Positions 182 to 12,532 of a DNA stretch of 14,457 nt are shown here, piece after piece. The notes under the pieces were generated by a model. The model was not told the origin of the DNA and made no database searches. It was given only the letters and a program-made list of their open reading frames with translations. The stretch is taken from the IMG/VR virus record IMGVR_UViG_2537562191_000039, positions 1-14,457 of that record; one strand, given 5' to 3'. How positions within the stretch are numbered: position 1 is the stretch's first letter; each line of letters begins with the position of its first letter. Source of the DNA: a virus. Taxonomy: Duplodnaviria; Heunggongvirae; Uroviricota; Caudoviricetes. Both the position numbers and the translations under genes were made by a program.

Positions 182-3100
182 GTGCTCGTCGGGGGAACAC
201 CATGTTTTACCGCGGGGCATATGGTTCTTTGTAAAAATGGCTATAAACCAATAGAAAATGTTTGCCCTGGTGATTACGTAGTCAGTCATCTCGGGCGGTT
301 ACAACAAGTAAAAAGAGTTGGTTCAAAAATAGCTAATACGGGGTTACTTAATGCCGTTGGGCAGCCTTTAGGTATAAGAACAACCAATGACCATCCCTTC
401 CTGGCTGTTCGGTGGAAAGCCCAAAACACCCGGAAAAATGGCACATATTTTAAGAGAGAGTTGTTGTCTGAACCGGAATGGCGAGCAGCATGTGATATGC
501 CGGGATATCAATGGTGCGCTCTAACTAATTTCAATATTGCATTTCCAGATATTTGTTCTCGGTTCTTGTCTGAAGAACAGGCTATGTATCTTGCGGGCGC
601 TTATGTTGGCGATGGATATATTAGGAGATGGAGAGGTAAATCTAAGAAGGCGGTTGTTTTTGGCATAAATTGCCAGAAATTGAGAAAGTTTCATTGCCGC
701 ATACCAGAAAACATATTTTCCGTGGCAAGCGAAATCCGAGGGAGCATCAAAGTAACCTTGAATGATACGTGTTATGCCAATTGGCTTAATGAACATTTTG
801 GCGAGTTAAGCCATGCTAAGCGTATCCCTGCATGGGTGATGTCGCATCCATTGCGTCATGTGTTTTTACAAGGCTATCTTGATACTGATGGGACACCAAG
901 TGGTAAAGCGGGATTTAGAATTAATAGTGTTAGTTCTGCGCTTGCTTGGGGCGTTGCGGGGTTGTCACAGACTTGTGGTTATGTTTCTTCGGTCAGCTTT
1001 ATTGAAGTTGAGCCCAAAAAAGTGATCGAGGATCGCGTGGTAAATCAACGGAATTATTATCAGGTAACAATCTGCCCGCAGAAATTGTCACGTAAATCAA
1101 GATTGGCTCATGGAATGCTTTTACGAACAGTCAAAGAGTTTAAATCGGTAGGCCTAGATACTGTATACAACATAGAAGTCGAAGGTGATCATTCCTATAT
1201 CCTCAATGGTGCGGTGGTCCATAACTGTCAGGCATTCAGTATCGCGGGATTACGTGGTGGGCTTGATGATGAGCGTGGCGCGCTAACTTTAAAGTATGTG
1301 GAGCTTGCAAATGCAATTGACGACAAACGGGCTGAGTCATTTCTCAAACCAGCCGTTATCGTCTGGGAAAATGTCCCAGGAGTCTTGTCATCGGCAGATA
1401 ACGCCTTCGGATGTTTCCTTGCCGGATTGGCTGGAGAAGATGCGCCATTTGAACCAGGTGATCGACCTGAATCAGGAAAAAGTAACACGTTCTGGCGGTG
1501 GGATGGCAAAACCGGTTGCCATGCTCCAAAGTGGCCGCAGTGTGGTTGTATTTATGGACCGCAGCGAAAAGTGGCCTGGAGAATCCTTGATGCCCAATAC
1601 TTCGGAGTGGCACAACGACGCCGACGCGTGTTTGTTGTCGCAAGTGCTCGAACAGACCTCGATCCCGCAACGGTACTTTTTGAGTTCGAAGGCGTGCGCC
1701 GGAATATTGCGCCGAGCCGAAAAAAGAAGGAAATCGCTTCCGCCATTATTGCAAATGGCGCTGCAATCAGTGGCGAAAGCCTAAATCCATGCCTACACGC
1801 TGACATGCCACCCGGTATGAAATCGACGAAAGCCGTAAACGCTTTCAGGATGGCAGCATTTGGGGAATATATTGACGATGAAACCGCATCGACAGTAAAG
1901 GCAAGAGATTTTAAAGATGCCACTGACCTTGCCGTTTTTAGCAGCACAGGAGCAGGTTTTTGGTCAGAAGGGCATGGTACATTGCGGGCACGTGAGCAAG
2001 AAAGCCATGAGCATCTTGTTACATTGGCTTTTCCTGAGCGTATGAGCGGTACACAACATGCTGCAACTAAGAATACTTCACCATCTCTAATGGCTAAAAA
2101 TCCAACAGCTGTTTGCTATGAAGTAAGAAACGCAGAAGTAGCTGTCCGCCGTCTTACCCCTGTCGAATGTGAAAGGCTGCAAGGTTTTCCTGAGGGGCAT
2201 ACGTTGATCCCGACGGAAAAGCGTAAAAAAGTTTCTTCAGATGAACTGGCATACCTTCGCAATCACTATCCAGATTTAAGCGAAGAAGAGGCCGCGATGC
2301 TTGCAGCTGACGGACCGCGTTACAAAGCGATCGGCAACAGCATGGCAGTTCCTGTTATGCAATGGATAGGGTGTCGCATTCTTGCGACCGTAGCGGATAA
2401 ACAGCAAAAAACAATAAATACCATTACCTACACAAGAAAACTCCGGACTCCGGATGAATATGAACGCCCAATATTCAAATGGGTAGGCGGTAAATTCTCA
2501 GAGTTGCCTACAGTGCTTGAGCATCTACCACACGGCAAGCGGTTAATAGAACCATTCGTTGGTGGCGGTTCCGTATTTACGAATGCAGGATTTCGCCACA
2601 ACCTGCTTAATGATATTAACGGTGACCTGATTAACTTCTATCAGACATTGCAGCGAGAGGGACATTCGCTCGTCACGCTGGCATATAGTTTTTTCAAAAA
2701 TTACAACAACGCTGACGCTTACCTCGAAGTGCGTGAGGCATTTAACAGAGGAAAGTATGACCAACTACATCATGCTGCTGCCTTTTTGTACCTTAATCGG
2801 CACTGTTTTAATGGCGTAACGCGGTACAACCAAAATGGCGAGTTCAACGTAGGGTATGGCAAATACAAAGCGCCCTACTTCCCACATGCAGAGATGGAGG
2901 CATTTTTGGCTGATGACGTACTCAAAAACACTTCCTTTGTATCAGGTGACTTTGCTAGCGTCATTGAGGCGGCTGGTGAAGACGATGTGATTTTTTGTGA
3001 TCCGCCGTATGAACCGCTTCCGGATACAGAGGGATTTACCAGCTATTCAGGAAATAGCTTCCGTTTCGACGAACAGAAACGGCTTGTATCACTGTTGGTG

Positions 3101-3274
3101 GATGCCCACCAGCGCGGCGCTAAGGTAGTGATAACAAATAGTGGTGCTCCAAACATCCGTGAACTATATGAAGGAAACGGGTTTAAAGTACATCATATGG
3201 CAGCCAGACGGTCGGTTTCCTGCAAGGCGTCAACACGTGTAGTTGCTAACGATATAATTGCAATAATGAAGTAA
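182..3274 (+). CDS. Fused DNA methyltransferase: C5-cytosine MTase domain (motifs IV-X only, intein-interrupted) plus Dam-like N6-adenine MTase domain; 5'-truncated by the IS
   Basis: ORF-track protein of 1030 aa. C5-MTase motifs appear in canonical order: motif IV split by the intein (SPDVLVGGTP|CQAFSIAGLRGG), motif VI VIVWENVPGV (ENV at nt 1367-1375), motif VIII YFGVAQRRRRVFVVA, motif IX RRLTPVECERLQGFPEGH, motif X AIGNSMAVPV. The last ~290 aa carry Dam-family motifs: KWVGGK, EPFVGGGSV (nt 2555-2572), FLYLNR, EFNVGYGKYK, FCDPPY (nt 2999-3010). No motifs I-III are present. Reading upstream in frame hits TGA at 113-115 inside the IS end, so the GTG at 182 (no Shine-Dalgarno) is probably not the ancestral start. 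Confidence 0.85.
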   Translation: MLVGGTPCFTAGHMVLCKNGYKPIENVCPGDYVVSHLGRLQQVKRVGSKIANTGLLNAVGQPLGIRTTNDHPFLAVRWKAQNTRKNGTYFKRELLSEPEWRAACDMPGYQWCALTNFNIAFPDICSRFLSEEQAMYLAGAYVGDGYIRRWRGKSKKAVVFGINCQKLRKFHCRIPENIFSVASEIRGSIKVTLNDTCYANWLNEHFGELSHAKRIPAWVMSHPLRHVFLQGYLDTDGTPSGKAGFRINSVSSALAWGVAGLSQTCGYVSSVSFIEVEPKKVIEDRVVNQRNYYQVTICPQKLSRKSRLAHGMLLRTVKEFKSVGLDTVYNIEVEGDHSYILNGAVVHNCQAFSIAGLRGGLDDERGALTLKYVELANAIDDKRAESFLKPAVIVWENVPGVLSSADNAFGCFLAGLAGEDAPFEPGDRPESGKSNTFWRWDGKTGCHAPKWPQCGCIYGPQRKVAWRILDAQYFGVAQRRRRVFVVASARTDLDPATVLFEFEGVRRNIAPSRKKKEIASAIIANGAAISGESLNPCLHADMPPGMKSTKAVNAFRMAAFGEYIDDETASTVKARDFKDATDLAVFSSTGAGFWSEGHGTLRAREQESHEHLVTLAFPERMSGTQHAATKNTSPSLMAKNPTAVCYEVRNAEVAVRRLTPVECERLQGFPEGHTLIPTEKRKKVSSDELAYLRNHYPDLSEEEAAMLAADGPRYKAIGNSMAVPVMQWIGCRILATVADKQQKTINTITYTRKLRTPDEYERPIFKWVGGKFSELPTVLEHLPHGKRLIEPFVGGGSVFTNAGFRHNLLNDINGDLINFYQTLQREGHSLVTLAYSFFKNYNNADAYLEVREAFNRGKYDQLHHAAAFLYLNRHCFNGVTRYNQNGEFNVGYGKYKAPYFPHAEMEAFLADDVLKNTSFVSGDFASVIEAAGEDDVIFCDPPYEPLPDTEGFTSYSGNSFRFDEQKRLVSLLVDAHQRGAKVVITNSGAPNIRELYEGNGFKVHHMAARRSVSCKASTRVVANDIIAIMK
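203..1225 (+). other. Intein (Hint splicing domain with LAGLIDADG homing-endonuclease insert), 341 aa, inserted at the catalytic Cys of the C5-MTase PCQ motif
   Basis: Begins with Cys (TGT 203-205) directly after GGTP, with an N-terminal block CFTAGHMVLCKNGYKPIENVCPGDYVV. Block B is TNDHPF. Two LAGLIDADG-type motifs, LAGAYVGDGY (nt 590-616) and FLQGYLDTDG (nt ~866-892), each retain the Asp. Block F is VYNIEVEGDHSY. Ends ILNGAVVHN (AAC 1223-1225) followed by +1 Cys (TGT 1226-1228). Removing it joins GGTP to CQAFSIAG, restoring GG.PCQ.FS.AG. Confidence 0.8.
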
Positions 3275-3322: not shown

Positions 3323-4984
3323 TTAACCTAACTTCGCCCAGGTATCACGCAGCCCAACGGTGCGGTTAAATACCGGTTTTTCCGCCGTAGAATGGCGGCT
3401 GTCGAGGCAGAAATAACCTTCACGCTCAAACTGGAATGCTTTACCCGCTACCGCTTCTTTCAGCGACGGTTCAGCAAAGCCCTGTTTGATCACCAGCGAT
3501 TCCGGGTTAATCACCGACAGGAAATCATCCGCAGCACCTGGGTTCGGCACGTTGAACAGACGATCGTACAGGCGGATTTCAACCGGCAGCGCATGTGCCG
3601 CGCTCACCCAGTGAATAACGCCTTTCACTTTACGACCATCTGCCGGATCTTTGCTTAAGGTGTCGGCGTCATAAGTACAGAAGATGGTGGTGATATTGCC
3701 TTCGGCATCTTTCTCCACGCGTTCAGCCTTAATGACGTAAGCATTACGCAGACGCACTTCTTTACCCAGCACCAGACGTTTGTACTGCTTGTTAGCTTCT
3801 TCGCGGAAATCGGCGCGGTCGATCCAAATCTCACCGCTAAACGGCACCTGACGGCTACCCATTTCCGGTTTGTTTGGATGGTTCGGCATGGTGACCATTT
3901 CGCCTTCGCCCTGGTAGTTTTCGATAACCAGTTTCACCGGATCGATAACCGCCATTGCGCGCGGGGCATTTTCGTTGAGATCTTCACGGATGCAGGATTC
4001 CAGCGACGCCATCTCAATGGTGTTGTCCTGCTTGGTCACGCCGATGCGTTTGCAGAACTCACGAATAGAAGCCGCAGTGTAACCACGACGACGCAGACCG
4101 GAAATGGTCGGCATACGCGGGTCATCCCAGCCTTCAACGTGCTTGTCGGTCACCAGCAGGTTCAGCTTACGCTTGGACATCACGGTGTATTCCAGATTCA
4201 GGCGCGAGAATTCGTACTGGCGCGGATGAACAGGAATGGTGATGTTGTCCAGTACCCAGTCATACAGACGACGGTTGTCCTGGAACTCAAGCGTACACAG
4301 AGAGTGCGTAATACCTTCCAGCGCATCGCTGATGCAGTGGGTGAAGTCGTACATCGGGTAGATGCACCACTTGTTGCCAGTCTGGTGGTGTTCAGCAAAC
4401 TTAATACGGTACAGCACCGGGTCGCGCATCACGATAAACGGCGAAGCCATGTCGATTTTCGCACGCAGGCAGGCTTTACCTTCTTCAAAACCACCGGCAC
4501 GCATTTTTTCGAACAGCGCCAGGTTCTCTTCAACGCTGCGGTCGCGGTACGGGCTGTTTTTACCCGGCTGCGTCAGGGTGCCGCGGTATTCGCGGATCTG
4601 TTCCGGCGTCAGTTCGTCAACATACGCCAGGCCTTTGTTGATCAGTTCAACAGCATAGGCATGGAGTTTGTCAAAATAATCGGAGGAGTAACGGATGTTG
4701 CCAGACCAGTGAAAACCTAACCATTCAACGTCGTTTTTAATCGACTCAACGTACTCGATATCTTCTTTTACTGGGTTAGTGTCGTCGAAACGCAGGTTGC
4801 ACTGGCCTTTATAGTCCTGGGCGATCCCGAAGTTCAGGCAGATAGATTTCGCATGACCAATATGCAGATAGCCATTCGGTTCCGGCGGGAAACGGGTATG
4901 TACTGTGGTGTGCTTACCACTGGCCAGATCTTCATCGATGATCTGACGAATAAAGTTAGTCGGGCGGGCTTCTGCCTCACTCAT
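3323..4984 (-). CDS. glnS: Glutamine--tRNA ligase (glutaminyl-tRNA synthetase)
   Basis: 553-aa product begins [48 protein letters not shown], with the class I HIGH motif and a VMSKR (KMSKS-type) motif. Full length and near-identical to E. coli GlnRS as I recall it. The flanks are not the chromosomal nagE/chiP neighbours. Confidence 0.97.
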
Positions 4985-5173
4985 TGTGGATTCCTCAAAG
5001 CGTAAACAACGTATAACAGCGTATGATCTTATAAGCCGAATAGGCTGACAACCACTAGTTGATTAGAAATTGCTTTCTATCGTTATTTCAATAATGAGCT
5101 TTTTCATGAAGCCCACTTTTGCGCATAAGTAAATTAATGATAAATGGCACACAATTGGAACCAAAAAGGATGT

Positions 5174-5211
5174 AAAGGTGCACCAAATTAGTGGTGTATT
5201 GGTACACCTTT
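5174..5211. promoter_or_regulatory. Imperfect palindrome downstream of the ParA/RHH operon; candidate protein-binding site or weak terminator
   Basis: Arms AAAGGTGCACC (5174-5184) and GGTACACCTTT (5201-5211) pair at 10 of 11 positions across a 16-bp spacer. No clean U-tract follows on the minus strand. Confidence 0.35.
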
Positions 5212-5252
5212 GGTTCAAGACTTTTTAAGTTCTAAAACCAACCTGAAAGACT

Positions 5253-5540
5253 TTATTTTGCTTCCTCAGACTCCGCTAACATGAGGATAGCATGGCGGAT
5301 CATATTCAATTTGCTGCGATTATGCTTTTTACTTAACGCATCAAGTACTTGGTACTCGTATTCATTGAAACCAACACGAATAGATTTAAAATCACGTGGA
5401 GCGTCCTTATCGAGCACTTTGTTGTCTTCTGGTTGCTCACCCGGCACCAAATCAGCCTTACTGGCAAAATCCTCAATTCGGCGTTCAAGATCGGGGTCTT
5501 TTACTTCGGGGGCTTTTACCGATTTACGAGGCTTAATCAC
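5253..5540 (-). CDS. ParG-like ribbon-helix-helix centromere-binding partner of ParA
   Basis: 95 aa. C-terminal RHH pattern: strand KSIRVGFNEYEY, helix QVLDALSKK, helix KLNMIRHAILMLAE, after a charged flexible N-terminus. GTG start overlaps the parA stop by 8 nt, with AAGGAG just upstream (translational coupling). Confidence 0.55.
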   Translation of the reverse strand: MIKPRKSVKAPEVKDPDLERRIEDFASKADLVPGEQPEDNKVLDKDAPRDFKSIRVGFNEYEYQVLDALSKKHNRSKLNMIRHAILMLAESEEAK

Positions 5541-6174
5541 TTAATAACTCCTTAACCAACATCTGGATTTCACCTTTAGCTTTCCCGTTGTCCATCTCAA
5601 CAACGCCCTTCCCTTCAGCCATGCAATCGCGGTAAACCTTACGATCACGAATGATGGTTTTCAGCAACTTCAGTTGCGGATATTCAGCTAGGTACTCTTT
5701 GGCCTCATTGGTTTCATTCACAACCGGATTGGATGGGGCCATTGTTAAGACTGCGAACGCCTTAATGCTAGGATTAGGCATCAGGTCCAAAGCCTCTTCA
5801 AACACTTCAACAAAGTGTGCCAGCGTGTCTAAATCTGGTTGAGATGGTCTGAATGGGACCAACACAATATCTGCAGCGGTTATGCCTGTACGCATCTCTT
5901 TGCTATCGCGCCCGGCTGTATCAACAACTACAAATTCATAACGCTTATCCAGATCGAGAAGTGTTTCTCGAATATTACCAAACTTCTGGACACAATGAAT
6001 TACAGGAGAAACCTCTGCCGTGTTACGGTCAGCTGCCCAGCGGGCAGCTGTTCCTTGCTTGTCTGCATCTAGTAACACTACATCCTTATTTGCGCGGGCA
6101 AGCTCCGCACAGATGTTTACGCTTGTGGTTGATTTTCCACAGCCACCTTTTTGGCTGACTACCAATATAATCAT
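5533..6174 (-). CDS. parA: ParA-family partition ATPase (small, type Ib-like)
   Basis: Deviant Walker A near the N-terminus, MIILVVSQKGGCGKSTTSVN, then LLDADKQG and VVVDTAGR motifs typical of ParA/MinD ATPases. Start placed at the internal ATG 6174, which has GAGGAA 5 nt upstream, rather than the ORF-track start at 6204. Confidence 0.85.
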   Translation of the reverse strand: MIILVVSQKGGCGKSTTSVNICAELARANKDVVLLDADKQGTAARWAADRNTAEVSPVIHCVQKFGNIRETLLDLDKRYEFVVVDTAGRDSKEMRTGITAADIVLVPFRPSQPDLDTLAHFVEVFEEALDLMPNPSIKAFAVLTMAPSNPVVNETNEAKEYLAEYPQLKLLKTIIRDRKVYRDCMAEGKGVVEMDNGKAKGEIQMLVKELLSD

Positions 6175-6418
6175 ATCCGTTCCTCGGTGTGATTTTGGTA
6201 TCAAAACGGTTCCAGATAAGAGCCTTTTTGATGCGGGACAGGCTCTATAATGGAGTCATGAATGTTTGGCAAAGTATAACATCAATCAGACCAAATACAC
6301 CTTATATTGCATCCTATTTAACACGAAATCAGCCCTAAATTGGAACCAGATACAAAATTGCACCATAACAGCACCTAACCGGTGCCAGATTAACACTAAT
6401 TAGACACCATTAAGGCAT

Positions 6419-6443
6419 AAAAAAGGCTGCAATTTGCAGCCTT
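6419..6443 (-). terminator. Rho-independent terminator of the parM-parR operon
   Basis: Perfect inverted repeat AAGGCTGCA / TGCAGCCTT (6423-6431 and 6435-6443) about 20 nt past the parR stop. On the minus strand it is followed by a run of six T (complement of the A-run at 6419-6424). Confidence 0.65.
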
Positions 6444-6461
6444 AAACCAGCACATCTTCTG

Positions 6462-6806
6462 TCAATCAGGTAGAGAGTCAGCCAGATTGCGCGCCGACGC
6501 GCTTTTGGCAACAACTTGCTCCTTCACTGGCTCAATGGAGGCAGGGCGCTCCTCAACCGCAGCTGGTAGTTCCAGGAAGGATGCCAGCATTTTTCGGATC
6601 AGCTCCGGGTTATTGTCTTCGGTCAGCAGGGAAGCCAGTAATCCTGGAAGCCTGCTATCGACTTCTCCCAGCGCAAGCCCTGCCAACAATGCGGTTCTTG
6701 CCATATCGCTATGTTTTTTTATCTTCTCGCTCGCCGCCTTTTCATTGGCATAAGCCTCTGGGCGAAGATAAATCATCACTTTCTTACGTTCCTGAGACAT
6801 GGACAT
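6462..6806 (-). CDS. parR: ParR-like centromere-binding adaptor of the type II (ParMRC) partition system
   Basis: 114 aa. N-terminal KKVMIYLRPE and central ARTALLAGLALGEVDSRLPGLLASLLTE resemble plasmid R1 ParR/StbB as I recall it. Sits directly downstream of parM with GAGG 4 nt before its ATG. Confidence 0.75.
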   Translation of the reverse strand: MSMSQERKKVMIYLRPEAYANEKAASEKIKKHSDMARTALLAGLALGEVDSRLPGLLASLLTEDNNPELIRKMLASFLELPAAVEERPASIEPVKEQVVAKSASARNLADSLPD

Positions 6807-6813
6807 TACCTCG

Positions 6814-7770
6814 TTAACCGATTGCTTTCAGGCCATGAACAAGAGCAAGTTGCGGGTCATCCGCCACGAAGAAACGGTCATCACGAATATTAACTTGCTC
6901 GCGAATTGCATCTGCCACCAGCGGTGCGCCACCACCGATCACCATGACATGCGTATATCCTTTAAAGTCGCCAATCACATCAAGAACTCGGGTACGCAGA
7001 CGGTCAATGCTTGCGGCAATGGCCTTTTTCACATCACCAATCGCTGATGGGTCATTGATATTGTCGTTCAGATAATCTTCATCGTGGCGGTTAATAATGA
7101 GCTGATCAACATTGTAATTTGACGTTTCGGTATTGGCCCTTGCAAGTGCTTGCCTTACTTCCCTGGTGACCAGTGATACACCAAGATTCGAATCGCCAAA
7201 AACACGGGAAACTGCCGTCATTTGCCCAGCGACCATTGAAACATCAAGGGTAGTTCCACCCAAATCGACGATAAGAACAGAATGGACAGGGTTCAGATTG
7301 TCGCACAGGCCAATTCCTGCCGGAATAGACTCCGGTCGTACCGTAACTTTCTTAATCGTGAACACATTGCCTTTATTCAGCGTGACGGGGCGCATAAGGC
7401 TGGCTTTCTTGCGCTCGATGTTATCGAGATTGTATTGCGCGTCGTCGTCGTAAAACTCCGCCAGAGGCAGCGTGACCACAATTTCTACTTCCTGCGGCTC
7501 AATACCGCTTGTCAGCAGGGCATGGTGAACAGCCAGGACGTTAAGCGGGCTGTATTGCCATTCCACGTTATTCGTCGGCAGAACATCTGGCGAGATCAAA
7601 TCATACGAATACTTCTCGTCGTCAATGACATAGTTAAACGGCTTGCCAGCACCAAATGTTGCTGACCATCCGCGCTTAAAGCTGTTAGGACTGATGTGAG
7701 TGCGAGTTTCCCCGTCGTGCTCCCACAGCATTTTGATATTGGTTGAACCATCATCGATAAAAATGCGCAT
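6814..7770 (-). CDS. parM: ParM/StbA actin-like plasmid segregation ATPase
   Basis: MRIFIDDGSTNIK (phosphate 1), LIVDLGGTTLDVS (phosphate 2) and HVMVIGGGA (adenosine) motifs; colinear with R1 ParM as recalled over the whole length. Start placed at the internal ATG 7770, which has GGAG 7 nt upstream; the ORF-track start at 7794 is a GTG eight codons further up. Confidence 0.9.
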   Translation of the reverse strand: MRIFIDDGSTNIKMLWEHDGETRTHISPNSFKRGWSATFGAGKPFNYVIDDEKYSYDLISPDVLPTNNVEWQYSPLNVLAVHHALLTSGIEPQEVEIVVTLPLAEFYDDDAQYNLDNIERKKASLMRPVTLNKGNVFTIKKVTVRPESIPAGIGLCDNLNPVHSVLIVDLGGTTLDVSMVAGQMTAVSRVFGDSNLGVSLVTREVRQALARANTETSNYNVDQLIINRHDEDYLNDNINDPSAIGDVKKAIAASIDRLRTRVLDVIGDFKGYTHVMVIGGGAPLVADAIREQVNIRDDRFFVADDPQLALVHGLKAIG

Positions 7771-7796
7771 CTTCTTGCTCCACTTCTGAGACACAT

Positions 7797-7951
7797 TTGA
7801 GAATCAAAATGTAATTTTAAAAGAGAAGCACCCAAAAATCCACACCAAACGAGACAAAAAAGAGCGCTTGTTGAGTTTATTTTGAGAATATCTTAATCAC
7901 CCACTGAATGATGGCCTGATAGTGAGATTTATTTGAGAATGAATTGAGAAT
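7797..7951. repeat. Iteron cluster (parC-like centromere/operator) in the parM upstream region
   Basis: Exact TTGAGAAT copies at 7797-7804, 7882-7889, 7933-7940 and 7944-7951, plus degenerate copies TTGAGTTT (7871-7878) and GTGAGATT (7922-7929). All lie between the divergent parM and PAAR genes. Confidence 0.55.
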
Positions 7952-8036
7952 ACAAAAATATTCCGAAATTTAACTCTCCGTTTGAATGACGAAATAACAA
8001 AGTGATGACAATAGGAGGATAACCAGGAGGTGAAGA

Positions 8037-8321
8037 ATGAGCGCAATAGCCACCAGCGACACCCTTTGTTCTGGTCACGGAGGATTTCCGCCGCGACTGG
8101 TAGCTGAAACCGTTCCCTGGTTCACCGTTAACGGTAAGCCAGTTGTTGTAGATGGTGCCATGTTTCCCAGTCACACTGACGGTAACAGTGCACACCCAGG
8201 GGCAGCTGTATCGACGCGAGTATGGTTTTCGATAGGTGGAAAGGGAGTTGTCTGTGTAGGCGATCCGCTTTCTTGTGGTTCTGTTATCGCCAACGGCGAG
8301 GATATTTTTCAGGTTGCATAA
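8037..8321 (+). CDS. PAAR-domain protein (spike-tip type, as in phage gp5.4 or T6SS PAAR)
   Basis: 94 aa with three PAAR-like segments and conserved metal ligands: DTLCSGHGGFPP, VNGKPVVVDGAM...HTDGNSAHPG, IGGKGVVCVGDPLSCGSVIANG. Strong RBS AGGAGG at 8025-8030, 6 nt before ATG 8037. Confidence 0.7.
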   Translation: MSAIATSDTLCSGHGGFPPRLVAETVPWFTVNGKPVVVDGAMFPSHTDGNSAHPGAAVSTRVWFSIGGKGVVCVGDPLSCGSVIANGEDIFQVA

Positions 8322-9655: not shown

Positions 9656-9821
9656 TTACTCCCCTTGTTTAGTGCCAGAGGACACGCCAGTGCTGTTAAA
9701 CAAGTATCCGACATACGCTGAACAGTTATTCAGCACGATCGACGAATGCAACCAACGAAACGCACTGAATAACCAAAGAAACAGGGAGATTTGGGAAGGG
9801 AAGGGGGATCAAGGCTCCTGA
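9489..9821 (+). CDS. Putative o-spanin (Rz1-like outer-membrane lipoprotein)
   Basis: Signal peptide with lipobox (MKSLALKMRYAVLGLTMCVCLMTLSG|C) and a Pro/Cys-containing mature region. Starts inside the i-spanin gene in a different frame and extends 166 nt past its stop. GAGGA lies 8 nt upstream of ATG 9489; ATG 9510 is an alternative start. Confidence 0.6.
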   Translation: MKSLALKMRYAVLGLTMCVCLMTLSGCSGNGQKPSTSVPVKITVEATSKPQANLIDYSPCLVPEDTPVLLNKYPTYAEQLFSTIDECNQRNALNNQRNREIWEGKGDQGS

Positions 9822-10267
9822 AGCCAGATGTCCTGGCTGTCAGCTTCTTCGAAACCGTGACAGACGTTAAAGTCACTCAAGCGATACTGACGCTGACGGC
9901 CTCTATTTCGCTCATGCCAATGCATGTATCCACCAGCAAATGCCAGCGGACAATCACTATAGTCTATGTAACCAATACCATTCCCCAAACGTGCTTCGCG
10001 CGCACCGGCTTTCCAGGACAGTAGAAAAGAGTCACGATCCGCCAGCATAACAACAAAATCGTCCGGATCTCCGATACAGTGAAGAATACCTGCCTTACAT
10101 AACTGCTTGAGCGCTTTTGACTGGCTCAGGATGTCTTCTCCGTAATACTGAAAACAATCATCAACAACAGCGGGATAGCCTGCCGGGGGATTCAGGCTGG
10201 TTGGTATAGCTGACGCGATCGCCAGCATTAAGCGATATTGTGTTTTTGATGGGTTAACGTGACTCAT
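9809..10267 (-). CDS. Hypothetical protein (152 aa), second gene of a two-gene minus-strand operon
   Basis: ORF-track 152 aa beginning MSHVNPSKTQYRLMLAIASAIP. AAGGGA sits 5 nt upstream of the ATG. No recognisable domain. Its 3' end overlaps the convergent o-spanin gene by 13 nt. Confidence 0.55.
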   Translation of the reverse strand: MSHVNPSKTQYRLMLAIASAIPTSLNPPAGYPAVVDDCFQYYGEDILSQSKALKQLCKAGILHCIGDPDDFVVMLADRDSFLLSWKAGAREARLGNGIGYIDYSDCPLAFAGGYMHWHERNRGRQRQYRLSDFNVCHGFEEADSQDIWLQEP

Positions 10268-10283
10268 TTTGTCCCTTGTTTAC

Positions 10284-10676
10284 TCATTGTCGCCATGCAT
10301 TTTTTAACTCAGGAATATCTGCCATTTCAATTAACTTGCGAAGTCCAGCACTGACTTTCCCATTGCCAACCATAGCAAGCCAATCTCTTACAGCTTTCGG
10401 CATGTAGAGCGTTGCAGTTACCGGCTCTTCAACCCTGGCAGGACATCCGCATACAGGCCATTTAATTGATTCCATAACTTCGGATGCCGGGGTGAGGGCG
10501 GGGACATTGAGTATATCTCTACCAGAAAACTGGATAACGATCCGTTCAGCGAGCGAGAGTATCTCACTTTCGGCAAGAATTGATGCCAACTGCGCCTCAA
10601 CAAGAAAGCGACTTGTTGTGTTCAGAGAGTGGCTCTTAGCGCCATTTTTATACGAAACAAAGATTCGATACGCCAT
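10284..10676 (-). CDS. Hypothetical protein (130 aa) with C-terminal ribbon-helix-helix-like DNA-binding region
   Basis: C-terminus TATLYMPKAVRDWLAMVGNGKVSAGLRKLIEMA fits a strand-helix-loop-helix RHH pattern (Arc/MetJ-like). The N-terminal ~80 aa are unrecognised. First gene of the operon, 16 nt upstream of the 152-aa gene. Confidence 0.55.
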   Translation of the reverse strand: MAYRIFVSYKNGAKSHSLNTTSRFLVEAQLASILAESEILSLAERIVIQFSGRDILNVPALTPASEVMESIKWPVCGCPARVEEPVTATLYMPKAVRDWLAMVGNGKVSAGLRKLIEMADIPELKNAWRQ

Positions 10677-10834: not shown

Positions 10835-12532
10835 GTGAATAAAAACATTCAGCCAGCTCGTGATCGCGAGCGCGAGATTATGAATCGGGCGGCAAGCGTC
10901 ATGGCTATGACCGTCGATCCGACCACCGATGCAGCAGGCAACATGATTGCTGACCAGGCAGTAATGATGGAAAACCTGGATAAAGCAATCCAGAAAGTGC
11001 CTATGTTTGAAGGCGTAAATCCAGAGGTCGCTCGTCAGATCACTGGTGGGTGGGCTATGTCTCTGCATGAGTATAAACGTCAACATGGTCATTACCCGGC
11101 AAGTGACATCCTGGCGAACGCACACATGGCTCTTGAACGCCTGATGACTGAATGTGCCAGTGATACCCATGAAGGCACGGGTAAGGCAATGTTTGAGTCT
11201 GTCGCGCAATCAATGCGTAGCTCTGACGGCGTAATGAAAGTTGCTCAATATGCTGCTCTAATTCTGCCTGCCTCTCTGGGCGCTGCTACCAGTGATGCCT
11301 GTACTTTTGTTCCTTGTGATCGTGACGAGTCAAATATTTATGAACTGGTCAACGTAGCAGGCACAAAATTCGGCACCTTCAAACAAGGTGACGAACTGAA
11401 TATGCAGTCAGCTGGTGTTTATTCTCAAATGAAGCGCCTGTATACCCTTTCCACTAAAGGGGATGGCAGCACCAAAACCTTCCAGTTCGACATCCAAAAT
11501 TTTGAGGGACAATCCTGCCCGCTTCGCGCTGGTTATAACAAACTGCTGATCAACCGCAAACCGTCCAAAGTTGACGACGGCGATGGCAACCTTTATTTCA
11601 ATGCTAAAGACAGCAAAGGTAATGCTTTCTCAGCGACTGCCAAAGTTGCCTATGACACTGGTGTCATTGACATTACATTTACCCAGGCTCCGCCAGAAGG
11701 TACTGAAATTGCTGTTCAGGTCGAAATTAACATCGAGCGCAATCCAAGCCTGATTCCTGTGATCAACCAGGCTATGCGTAAGTACGAAGTTCGTCCGTCC
11801 CAGTACGTAATTGCTTCCGAACACACGGTAATGTCCGCATCCGATTTAAGCCGTGAGCACGGCCTTGAATTAGCGGCACTTCAGTTCTCCGCGATGCGTA
11901 ACTGGATCTCCCATGAAACTGACATCATGCGTCTGCGCACCCTGGTATTCCATACCGTTTATGGCCGTGAATTTGATGTGGCTCTGCCGGAAGCTCAAAA
12001 CTATGAGTCCTGGGTCGGCCTCCTGCGTCACGTAGTAAACGCTCTGTCTCAGGAAATGGCAAATCGTACCCTGACAACGGGTATTCGTGGCGGCTTTGCT
12101 GGTGGTGACGCCGCGAACTTCCTGCGCTCTCTGCCTCCACAGCACTTCCAGATCGCACCAGGTTACGTTCAGTCGCCGTATGTACAGTACATCGGCACCC
12201 TGTTTGGCACGATTCGTATTTACGAAGTGCCGCAACCTGTCTGTGAGCAATTCCAGGCACAGGGATATGACTTCGGGCTGGATGACATCTTCTTCTATGG
12301 GCGTGGCGAAGGCATCGGTAAAGCCGGTCTGATTGCTGGTGATGCAGTCCCTGCAATCCCTTACGTGCACGAAACCAATCCGTCTCTCGTTAACCGTACC
12401 ACTCTCTGGGGCAGTGCCATCAACGAAGTACATCCTCGCAACGGTGAAAACTACTTCACTCGCCTGCGTCTGACTCGTGCCAAAGAAGGCGCTATCGACA
12501 TGCTGACAGGCAAGGTTAACGAAAAAAAGTGA
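10835..12532 (+). CDS. Putative major capsid protein (large phage head protein); exact family not established
   Basis: 565-aa ORF with GTG start (an in-frame ATG at 10880 is an alternative). It is followed by an Ig-like decoration-type gene and ends in an A_AAA_AAG slippery heptamer. The C-terminal region loosely recalls T4 gp23-type capsid proteins, but this is from memory only. The gene is certainly real; the product call is tentative. Confidence 0.5.
   Translation: MNKNIQPARDREREIMNRAASVMAMTVDPTTDAAGNMIADQAVMMENLDKAIQKVPMFEGVNPEVARQITGGWAMSLHEYKRQHGHYPASDILANAHMALERLMTECASDTHEGTGKAMFESVAQSMRSSDGVMKVAQYAALILPASLGAATSDACTFVPCDRDESNIYELVNVAGTKFGTFKQGDELNMQSAGVYSQMKRLYTLSTKGDGSTKTFQFDIQNFEGQSCPLRAGYNKLLINRKPSKVDDGDGNLYFNAKDSKGNAFSATAKVAYDTGVIDITFTQAPPEGTEIAVQVEINIERNPSLIPVINQAMRKYEVRPSQYVIASEHTVMSASDLSREHGLELAALQFSAMRNWISHETDIMRLRTLVFHTVYGREFDVALPEAQNYESWVGLLRHVVNALSQEMANRTLTTGIRGGFAGGDAANFLRSLPPQHFQIAPGYVQSPYVQYIGTLFGTIRIYEVPQPVCEQFQAQGYDFGLDDIFFYGRGEGIGKAGLIAGDAVPAIPYVHETNPSLVNRTTLWGSAINEVHPRNGENYFTRLRLTRAKEGAIDMLTGKVNEKK

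Follow-up and report, generated by a model that had tools for sequence, protein, structure and literature searches.

The 14,457-nt window analysed here, from the caudovirus record IMGVR_UViG_2537562191_000039, very probably carries two functional partition cassettes with cis-acting sites that can be mapped. One is a type Ib cassette, composed of a small Walker-type ATPase (ParA) and a ribbon-helix-helix (RHH) partner; the other is a type II cassette, composed of the actin-like protein ParM and its adaptor ParR. All positions refer to the whole window, and all four par genes lie on the minus strand. A sequence-only reading of the stretch had already placed these two partition types side by side on that strand, and matches in Pfam and PDB bear this out. 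The evidence consists of observed gene identities and folds, the repeat architecture, its conservation among related elements and the co-variation between sites and proteins.

Positions 5000-8300 match Escherichia phage D6 (MF356679, 56610-59909) at 98.6% identity over 3301 nt, and the E. coli plasmid NZ_AP018804 at 100%. D6 is a temperate phage related to P1, and its prophage is kept as a circular plasmid. The window and D6 share the gene order dmt, glnS, par genes, upfC, upfB, gene 23, in which the par module is flanked by the P1-syntenic genes dmt and upfC. Near-identity and synteny together identify the region as the module that serves plasmid maintenance in a D6-like (P1 group 2) phage-plasmid, in agreement with the earlier suggestion of a low-copy extrachromosomal replicon. 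Only one plasmid initiator, orf42, is annotated in D6, some 10.5 kb away from the par module and in addition to the lytic repL; taken over the whole record, the annotation contains no further partition genes and no transfer genes. In GenBank, D6 orf58 is labeled "StbA type plasmid stability protein", orf59 "StbB type" and orf61 hypothetical, and a note to orf60 gives a "possible ParA partitioning function", with similarity to the C-terminal third of P1 ParA only. For pYU39_89, a D6-like plasmid that has been re-annotated, the partition system is given as "cop, parA, stbB and parM" (PMC6799933).

A megablast search against PLSDB found the entire 3.3-kb stretch in 105 records and part of it in 123; both cassettes occur together on at least 105 PLSDB plasmids. 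Nearly all carriers (121 of the 123) are non-mobilizable, D6-like replicons of about 90 kb, from Escherichia, Salmonella and Shigella. We compared the window and D6 with three further lineages, L003 (Shigella dysenteriae, 83% DNA identity), L009 and L011. In all four diverged D6-like lineages examined, counting the window and D6 as one, the ParMR and ParA–RHH cassettes stand in the same tandem order, and all four open reading frames (ORFs) are intact, with their motifs and start sites kept.

The type II cassette is defined by an actin-like ParM, a small RHH adaptor directly downstream, and direct repeats of parC kind upstream of parM, around the candidate promoter. ParM matches the Pfam families StbA_N (1.8e-69) and ParM C-terminal domain (2.7e-55), and aligns end to end (residues 1-318) with the R1 ParM structure 1mwk (E = 3.7e-111). 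Its sequence identity is 54% with an R1-type ParM and 70% with the ParM encoded on a MOBH conjugative plasmid (L004). The start codon was assigned to the ATG at 7770, which sits behind GGAG, and GTG 7794 was rejected. The parR ORF begins 8 nt past the parM stop. Its product matches Pfam Plasmid_stab_B (3.5e-11) and the pB171 ParR structure 2jd3 (E = 1e-6), and falls in PHROG 8671 (partition protein). A predicted intrinsic terminator, unchanged in the four lineages and with a fold of -13.5 kcal/mol, ends the parM–parR operon and sets the two operons apart.

Exact copies of TTGAGAAT are found at 7797, 7882, 7933 and 7944, and a fifth stands alone at 11421. The number expected in the whole 14.4-kb window is 0.67, and 5 copies were reached in 0 of 200 shuffles. 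In the coding-strand direction the repeat reads ATTCTCAA followed by 3 nt, an 11-bp iteron with a CTCA core. The sequence-only reading had counted four exact and two degenerate copies at 7797-7951; the exact copies stand, and the degenerate ones in exact 11-bp register number three, namely TGTCTCAG (7786-7793), AAACTCAA (7871-7878) and AATCTCAC (7922-7929). Seven same-strand CTCA cores (TGAG on the plus strand) are thereby found at 7786-7951, in clusters of 3+2+2. Four pairs of neighboring cores are exactly 11 bp apart, and as many lag-11 pairs occurred in 0 of 20000 shuffles.

Alignment of the region upstream of parM shows that the TTCTCAA/CTCA cores are invariant across the four lineages and that the sequence between them has diverged. 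This phylogenetic footprinting supports the TTGAGAAT repeats as a candidate parC centromere/operator, at the site where a parC had been expected. Cluster C is placed after the -10 element and before the Shine-Dalgarno sequence of parM, and in L011 it contains exactly one additional 11-bp unit, TTCTCAAATGT (L011:1499-1786). The TTTTAAAAT block, between clusters B and C, and GTGTGGATT are also invariant in the four lineages, and TAAAAT is the candidate -10 element of parMR. Upstream of the 70%-identical ParM of L004, CTCA-core 11-bp iterons are found on both sides of a block with TTAAAATTACA. On the plus strand, a sigma-70-like promoter match (TTGAGA-18-AATATT, 7933-7962) faces the divergent PAAR/upfC gene and has its -35 inside cluster A; a block of about 35 bp at 7985-8020, just upstream of the same gene, is nearly invariant in the four lineages.

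ParA carries the deviant Walker A motif KGGCGKST at residues 9-16 and is without an N-terminal helix-turn-helix (HTH) domain. It matches the Pfam families AAA_31, CbiA, MipZ and VirC1 and falls in PHROG 164 (ParA-like). Its best PDB match is ParF of TP228 (4dzz, E = 1e-18), with residues 3-211 aligned to ParF 4-202. The ATG at 6174 and the GAGGA Shine-Dalgarno sequence before it are invariant in the four lineages, and TTG 6204 was rejected as start. The partner gene begins with GTG and overlaps the parA stop by 8 nt, as the overlap noted earlier had implied. A small ParA with a deviant Walker A motif and no N-terminal DNA-binding domain, followed immediately by a small RHH partner, places the cassette in type Ib. 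It does not have the features of a type Ia ParABS system of the P1/F kind, given that ParA has only 213 residues, the SopA/RepA models match marginally, and the partner is an RHH rather than an HTH protein.

Direct searches of Pfam, NCBIfam and PDB with the partner, the counterpart of D6 orf61, gave no match. A word-indexed protein search returned close relatives only, and an AlphaFold2 (AF2) prediction on that shallow alignment had a predicted local distance difference test score (pLDDT) of 57. An exhaustive HMMER search yielded 101 representative clusters at 50% identity, of about 90 residues. The RHH assignment of orf61 holds because many of these homologues match RHH Pfam families and the family profile matches CopG proteins in register, if weakly. 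In the window's protein a basic N-terminus (MIKPRK) is followed by a helix at 16-29 and, towards the C-terminus, by the RHH at about 50-94. The homologues have in common a basic N-terminus, in which K3 is invariant and R5 invariant or nearly so, and a conserved block at the C-terminus. The family (P0016-P0114), with the signature MVKRR...IExFA..AD...K.I.VPFNEYEY..L...A.K.GRSKLN.IR.AI, is without a Pfam or NCBIfam model and is listed in PHROGs under "unknown function" (phrog_9169).

As judged from periodicity and alignment, the conserved feature of the ParA cassette is a set of 11-bp-periodic TGGTRYC-like arrays on both sides of the operon. Testing the flanks of parA for enriched exact k-mers gave no motif; the arrays were revealed by lag autocorrelation together with cross-lineage alignment. 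Over the 290-bp region upstream of parA, lags 11, 33 and 22 rank as the top three (z = 4.2, against a 95% null maximum of 3.0). The units there follow the consensus TGGTRYC with an AT-rich 4-nt spacer, and TGGTRYC-like matches number 11 against 2.5 expected (4.4-fold). This upstream array may be the operator and centromere (parC1-like) to which the RHH protein binds, and arrays of its kind are kept in L003, L009, L011 and pASal5. The sequence TGnTATACT is invariant in the four lineages and its neighboring sequence has diverged; by its fit to the consensus, TGTTATACT is the probable promoter element of the parA–RHH operon.

The leader array extends to the Shine-Dalgarno sequence, and L003 has GGTACC-N5-GGTACC at the same positions. 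Unit 2 of this array is one arm of the AGAGCCT/AGGCTCT inverted repeat that the sequence-only reading had put forward for the ParA operon. The repeat is present, and as a hairpin in the parA 5' leader RNA it has a predicted fold of -15.2 kcal/mol (z = -3.9). By our own arithmetic, about 0.5 perfect 7-bp inverted repeats with loops of 3-30 nt are expected per 290 bp, and such a repeat is not significant alone. It is identical in D6 and absent in L003, L009 and L011; since it is not conserved in these three, it is a lineage-specific feature and not the defining site of the ParA system.

Downstream of the RHH stop codon, TGGTRYC-like matches number 5 against 1.55 expected (3.2-fold). The imperfect palindrome described earlier at 5174-5211 is indeed an inverted repeat, with arms of 13 nt instead of 11 bp (5174-5186 and 5199-5211, 12/13 complementary, 12-nt loop), and it comprises two units of a seven-unit array. 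The RNA hairpin of this array has a predicted energy of -18.3 kcal/mol (z = -5.0). The array is a candidate second centromere (parC2-like) and possibly a terminator hairpin as well. In L003 and L011, which are without glnS, the RHH gene is followed by about 11 crisp TGGTACC-type units (counted by eye) at 11-bp spacing and then by a terminator. The lag-11 periodicity in L003 reaches z = 5.2 in the upstream region, with a second value of 3.7. L009 has one extra 11-bp unit upstream of parA (L009:3079-3381), and the exact 11-bp differences in both iteron arrays, that of parC and that of the ParA cassette, are consistent with gain or loss of units by slippage.

This motif, at this spacing, also precedes the 65%-identical ParA on the Aeromonas plasmid pASal5 (L005), where the partner is 47% identical. 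More distant ParA relatives, from Photobacterium and Burkholderia, have no TGGTRYC arrays, which indicates that the motif is specific to the orf61-type partner. Because these ParA proteins are paired with other RHH proteins and other repeats, repeat site and RHH protein co-vary. The Photobacterium operon (L014:2250-2400) has a downstream 21-bp GGTCACA...TTAGTC array (lag-21 z = 6.7), and the Burkholderia p1 operon (L015:1130-1200) has ACTCAA-type repeats upstream, which we take to recall the ACTC boxes of TP228 parH.

Table 1. Genes and candidate control and centromere elements of the two partition cassettes.
Feature	Positions	Strand	Description
Downstream array	5146-5218	-	Seven 11-bp-phased units after the RHH stop: TTGAACC, GTGTACC, CACCACT, TGGTGCA, TACATCC, TGGTTCC, GTGTGCC
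RHH partner (D6 orf61)	5253-5540	-	95 aa; candidate centromere-binding protein
ParA (D6 orf60)	5533-6174	-	213 aa; small Walker-type ATPase
Leader array	6186-6236	-	Five 11-bp-phased units: CCGCATC, AGGCTCT, TGGAACC, TGATACC, TCACACC
7-bp inverted repeat	6219-6246	-	AGAGCCT (6219-6225) / AGGCTCT (6240-6246); 14-nt loop
Candidate extended -10 of parA–RHH operon	6273-6281	-	TGTTATACT; no good -35 hexamer; unit arrays on both sides
Upstream array	6287-6409	-	12 units, 11-bp spacing; one 6-bp phase shift at 6348-6354
Predicted intrinsic terminator of parM–parR operon	6423-6443	-	AAGGCTGCA-AAT-TGCAGCCTT then TTTTTTAT; terminator scan
ParR (StbB)	6462-6806	-	114 aa; N-terminal RHH adaptor; putative parC binder
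ParM (StbA)	6814-7770	-	318 aa; actin-like filament-forming ATPase (by homology; Pfam, 1mwk)
Candidate parC cluster C	7786-7804	-	Two iterons: ATTCTCAA-atg-TGTCTCAG; unchanged in four lineages
Candidate -10 of parMR promoter	7814-7819	-	TAAAAT; weak -35 TGGATT at 7837-7842
Extra degenerate unit near cluster B	7850-7857	-	TTGTCTCG
Candidate parC cluster B	7871-7889	-	Two iterons: ATTCTCAA-aat-AAACTCAA; cores invariant, spacers diverged
Candidate parC cluster A	7922-7951	-	Three iterons: ATTCTCAA-ttc-ATTCTCAA-ata-AATCTCAC; cores kept in L003, L009, L011

The classic double par locus is that of pB171, with par1 of type II (ParM/ParR/parC) and par2 of type Ib (ParA/ParB(RHH)/parC1+parC2). The pB171-type locus used for comparison (L006) encodes a ParR identical to PDB 2jd3 over the aligned part. 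In both loci a type Ib and a type II cassette are adjacent on one enterobacterial replicon, the gene of the small ParA overlaps that of its RHH partner, and the ParA operon is flanked on either side by repeat arrays, which in the D6-type locus are candidate sites. The candidate arrays of the D6-type operon match the parC1/parC2 organization of pB171 par2, which is used as such in PMC4270457. Identity between the window and L006 is 44.5% for ParA, 43% for ParM and 28% for ParR; the value for the RHH partner, 22% at E = 0.035, is not significant. The arrangement of the operons differs. In L006, transcription sets out from one shared central region, to the left for ParR/ParM and to the right for ParA and a CopG-family protein, and the divergent operons of pB171 have the central parC1 in common, which allows regulatory cross-talk, whereas the D6-type operons are in tandem and co-directional, with a terminator between them and a control region for each. 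The repeat motif is TGGTRYC in the D6-type locus and consists of other short repeats in L006, and the host replicon is a phage-plasmid instead of a virulence plasmid.

With R1 ParMRC, the type II cassette shares the gene order parC-parM-parR and the presence of 11-bp direct iterons on both sides of the promoter. It differs in ParR (26% identical), in the iteron sequence, which has a CTCA core and is unrelated to the A/C-rich, AAACCC-type repeats of R1 type in L008, and in having seven or eight iterons in three clusters (3+2+2) instead of 5+5. The type Ib cassette resembles TP228 ParF/ParG/parH in its small partner, in which a C-terminal RHH follows a flexible and basic N-terminal part, and in a short-repeat array with AT-rich spacers upstream of the operon. 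In contrast to TP228, it has a different motif and spacing and an additional downstream array, and no match between ParG and orf61 was found at E up to 10 in PDB and family-profile searches. P1 ParA/ParB/parS (type Ia) fills the same biological role in the sister phage-plasmid group, and the P1 par locus presumably lies in a roughly similar genome neighborhood, between gene 23 and dmt. In P1, ParA is large, begins with an HTH domain and is paired with an HTH-ParB, both absent from the D6-like elements, and the par locus is next to repA, unlike the D6 module with its distant initiator gene. In a 2026 survey (PMC13245405), more than one system is given for about 19% of the PLSDB plasmids having a recognizable one, and the combination of type I RHH and type II, on 971 PLSDB accessions, is termed previously reported.

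By analogy with pB171, R1 and TP228, the two cassettes may be expected to show DNA binding, autoregulation, ATPase stimulation and plasmid stabilization. ParR dimers would bind the 11-bp iterons (CTCA core, best copies ATTCTCAA) cooperatively through their RHH domains. Since the iterons surround the promoter in three clusters, we propose that ParR binding would also repress parMR. The ParR–parC complex would then cap ATP-bound ParM filaments, which would push sister plasmids apart. In the type Ib cassette, the 95-aa RHH protein would coat the 11-bp-spaced TGGTRYC-like arrays that lie before the promoter and over it, in the leader, and past the end of the operon, and this binding would both repress the extended -10 promoter and build the partition complex. 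Through its basic N-terminal tail, the RHH protein may stimulate the ATPase of nucleoid-bound ParA dimers, and plasmids would thus be positioned along the nucleoid.

Several observations weigh against two working cassettes with the sites mapped here. The units of the ParA flanks are degenerate in the window, with only 2 exact TGGTRYC in 6175-6420, and in the downstream region lags 11 and 22 rank second and third at z = 2.5, which is not significant alone. The parC clusters are not in one 11-bp register, being separated by gaps of 40 and 74 bp, and seven or eight iterons compare with ten in R1. ParA scores 162.6 bits with the NCBIfam model ParA_partition, below its cut-off of 180, although the model is covered from 1 to 203 of 203. 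A promoter scan listed neither of the two par promoters on the minus strand, so that both assignments stand on conservation and consensus. Finally, a literature search, in which the D6 genome paper was beyond reach, found no experiment on D6-type par loci.

An alternative reading is that a single cassette is the working system and that the other is redundant, decaying or kept for another purpose, such as excluding or destabilizing rival plasmids by centromere incompatibility, widening the host range, or positioning phage DNA in lytic growth. The units flanking ParA are more degenerate in the window than in L003 and L011, and ParMRC is found by megablast in 123 plasmids compared with 111 for the ParA cassette, a gap that divergence can explain. 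For the dual ParABS plasmid SCP1, PMC13245405 states that only one of two functional systems mattered for maintenance in laboratory conditions. Against this, the four ORFs are intact in every lineage and the promoter element and repeat arrays are conserved for both cassettes; we regard this explanation as unlikely. In pB171, redundancy between a functional type Ib and a functional type II system is the established state, as reportedly shown by Ebersbach and Gerdes in 2001, which also counts against a single working cassette. It is more doubtful still that the repeats serve as transcriptional operators only, with the real centromeres elsewhere on the replicon. Both repeat sets do overlap or flank candidate promoters. 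Yet the repeats of R1 parC, pB171 parC1/parC2 and TP228 parH are operator and centromere at once, the array downstream of the RHH gene in L003 and L011 has no promoter to regulate and is directly followed by a terminator, and the sole other exact TTGAGAAT in the window is the single copy at 11421.

The sequence-only reading had also suggested that the dual loci are the scar of a cointegrate of two plasmid backbones. The nearest relatives of each cassette do occur singly, ParMR on the MOBH plasmid (L004) and ParA–RHH beside repA on pASal5 (L005), and since these are unrelated conjugative plasmids, the pair was assembled from two modules of separate origin. A cointegrate was nevertheless rejected on the whole D6 annotation, in which one plasmid initiator and the lytic repL leave no second backbone and transfer genes are absent; the P1-syntenic flanks, the tandem order kept across four diverged lineages and the non-mobilizable state of 121 of the 123 carriers agree with this, and we consider such an origin extremely improbable. 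Equally hard to credit is that ParA and its partner act in positioning or regulation, as a pair of the VirC1/VirC2 kind or another pair of the ParA family, and not in partition. VirC2, too, is of the RHH type, ParA matches Pfam VirC1 over residues 13-197 (3.7e-12), and its score lies under the NCBIfam partition cut-off. However, the NCBIfam VirC1 model gives 51.8 against a cut-off of 313, far shorter of its threshold than ParA_partition (162.6 against 180). Among solved structures ParF is the best relative by sequence, the setting is not that of a T-DNA or a relaxosome, the pASal5 homologue stands beside repA, and iterated arrays on both sides of the ParA operon fit pB171 par2.

Besides two cassettes acting in partition, a role of the tandem arrangement beyond redundancy can be imagined, to which we give little credence. 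ParR bound to cluster A would cover the -35 of the promoter facing the PAAR/upfC-upfB virion genes; if so, a tail-tip operon would be kept silent in the lysogen by the prophage partition complex as well. The two cassettes might instead divide labor between hosts or copy-number states. In the same speculative vein, the orf61 family with its TGGTACC-type arrays might represent a distinct, uncharacterized type Ib subfamily of centromere-binding proteins.

The surroundings of the par module show further features. Directly downstream of it lies a full-length glutaminyl-tRNA synthetase gene (glnS; 3323-4984, minus strand), which is present in D6 and L009 and absent from L003 and L011, and is therefore a lineage-variable cargo gene. 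On the other side, the ORF at 8037-8321 (plus strand) encodes a PAAR-motif protein homologous to P1 upfC (Pfam 27.2 bits, cut-off 27). Two conserved ORFs of 152 and 130 aa at 9809-10676 (minus strand), corresponding to D6 orf53 and orf52, have no Pfam match. Positions 1-2443 have no megablast match in D6, where a short unrelated orf64 stands instead. Positions 1-183 are the right end of the IS3-like insertion sequence IS1203, with 97-99% identity to the transposase ends annotated for IS1203 on over 2600 plasmids. The ORF at 182-3274 (plus strand; 1030 aa) is a C5-cytosine methylase (PF00145) fused to a Dam-type D12 methylase (PF02086). The IS1203 end abuts the 5' end of this ORF, which starts at 182, and the Dcm-type methylase gene thus appears to be truncated by the insertion. 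The ORF contains an intein of 341 aa (203-1225), with a Hint domain and two LAGLIDADG motifs, inserted exactly within the catalytic motif (GGTP|C...VVHN|CQAFS). An Rfam scan of the window gave no match.

The partition genes themselves are already annotated in D6 and in about 120 plasmid records, and the pairing of type Ib and type II systems is well known. What is added here is a map, at base level, of the sites that may act as centromeres and operators of the two systems in D6-like phage-plasmids, together with the identification of the "hypothetical" orf61 product as RHH partner. The two cassettes would be the sole partition functions of widespread, often unrecognized plasmid prophages of E. 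coli, Salmonella and Shigella. As the iterons differ, compatibility with R1-type and pB171-type plasmids is expected, and the map may serve to predict incompatibility with co-resident plasmids and to design D6-based vectors.

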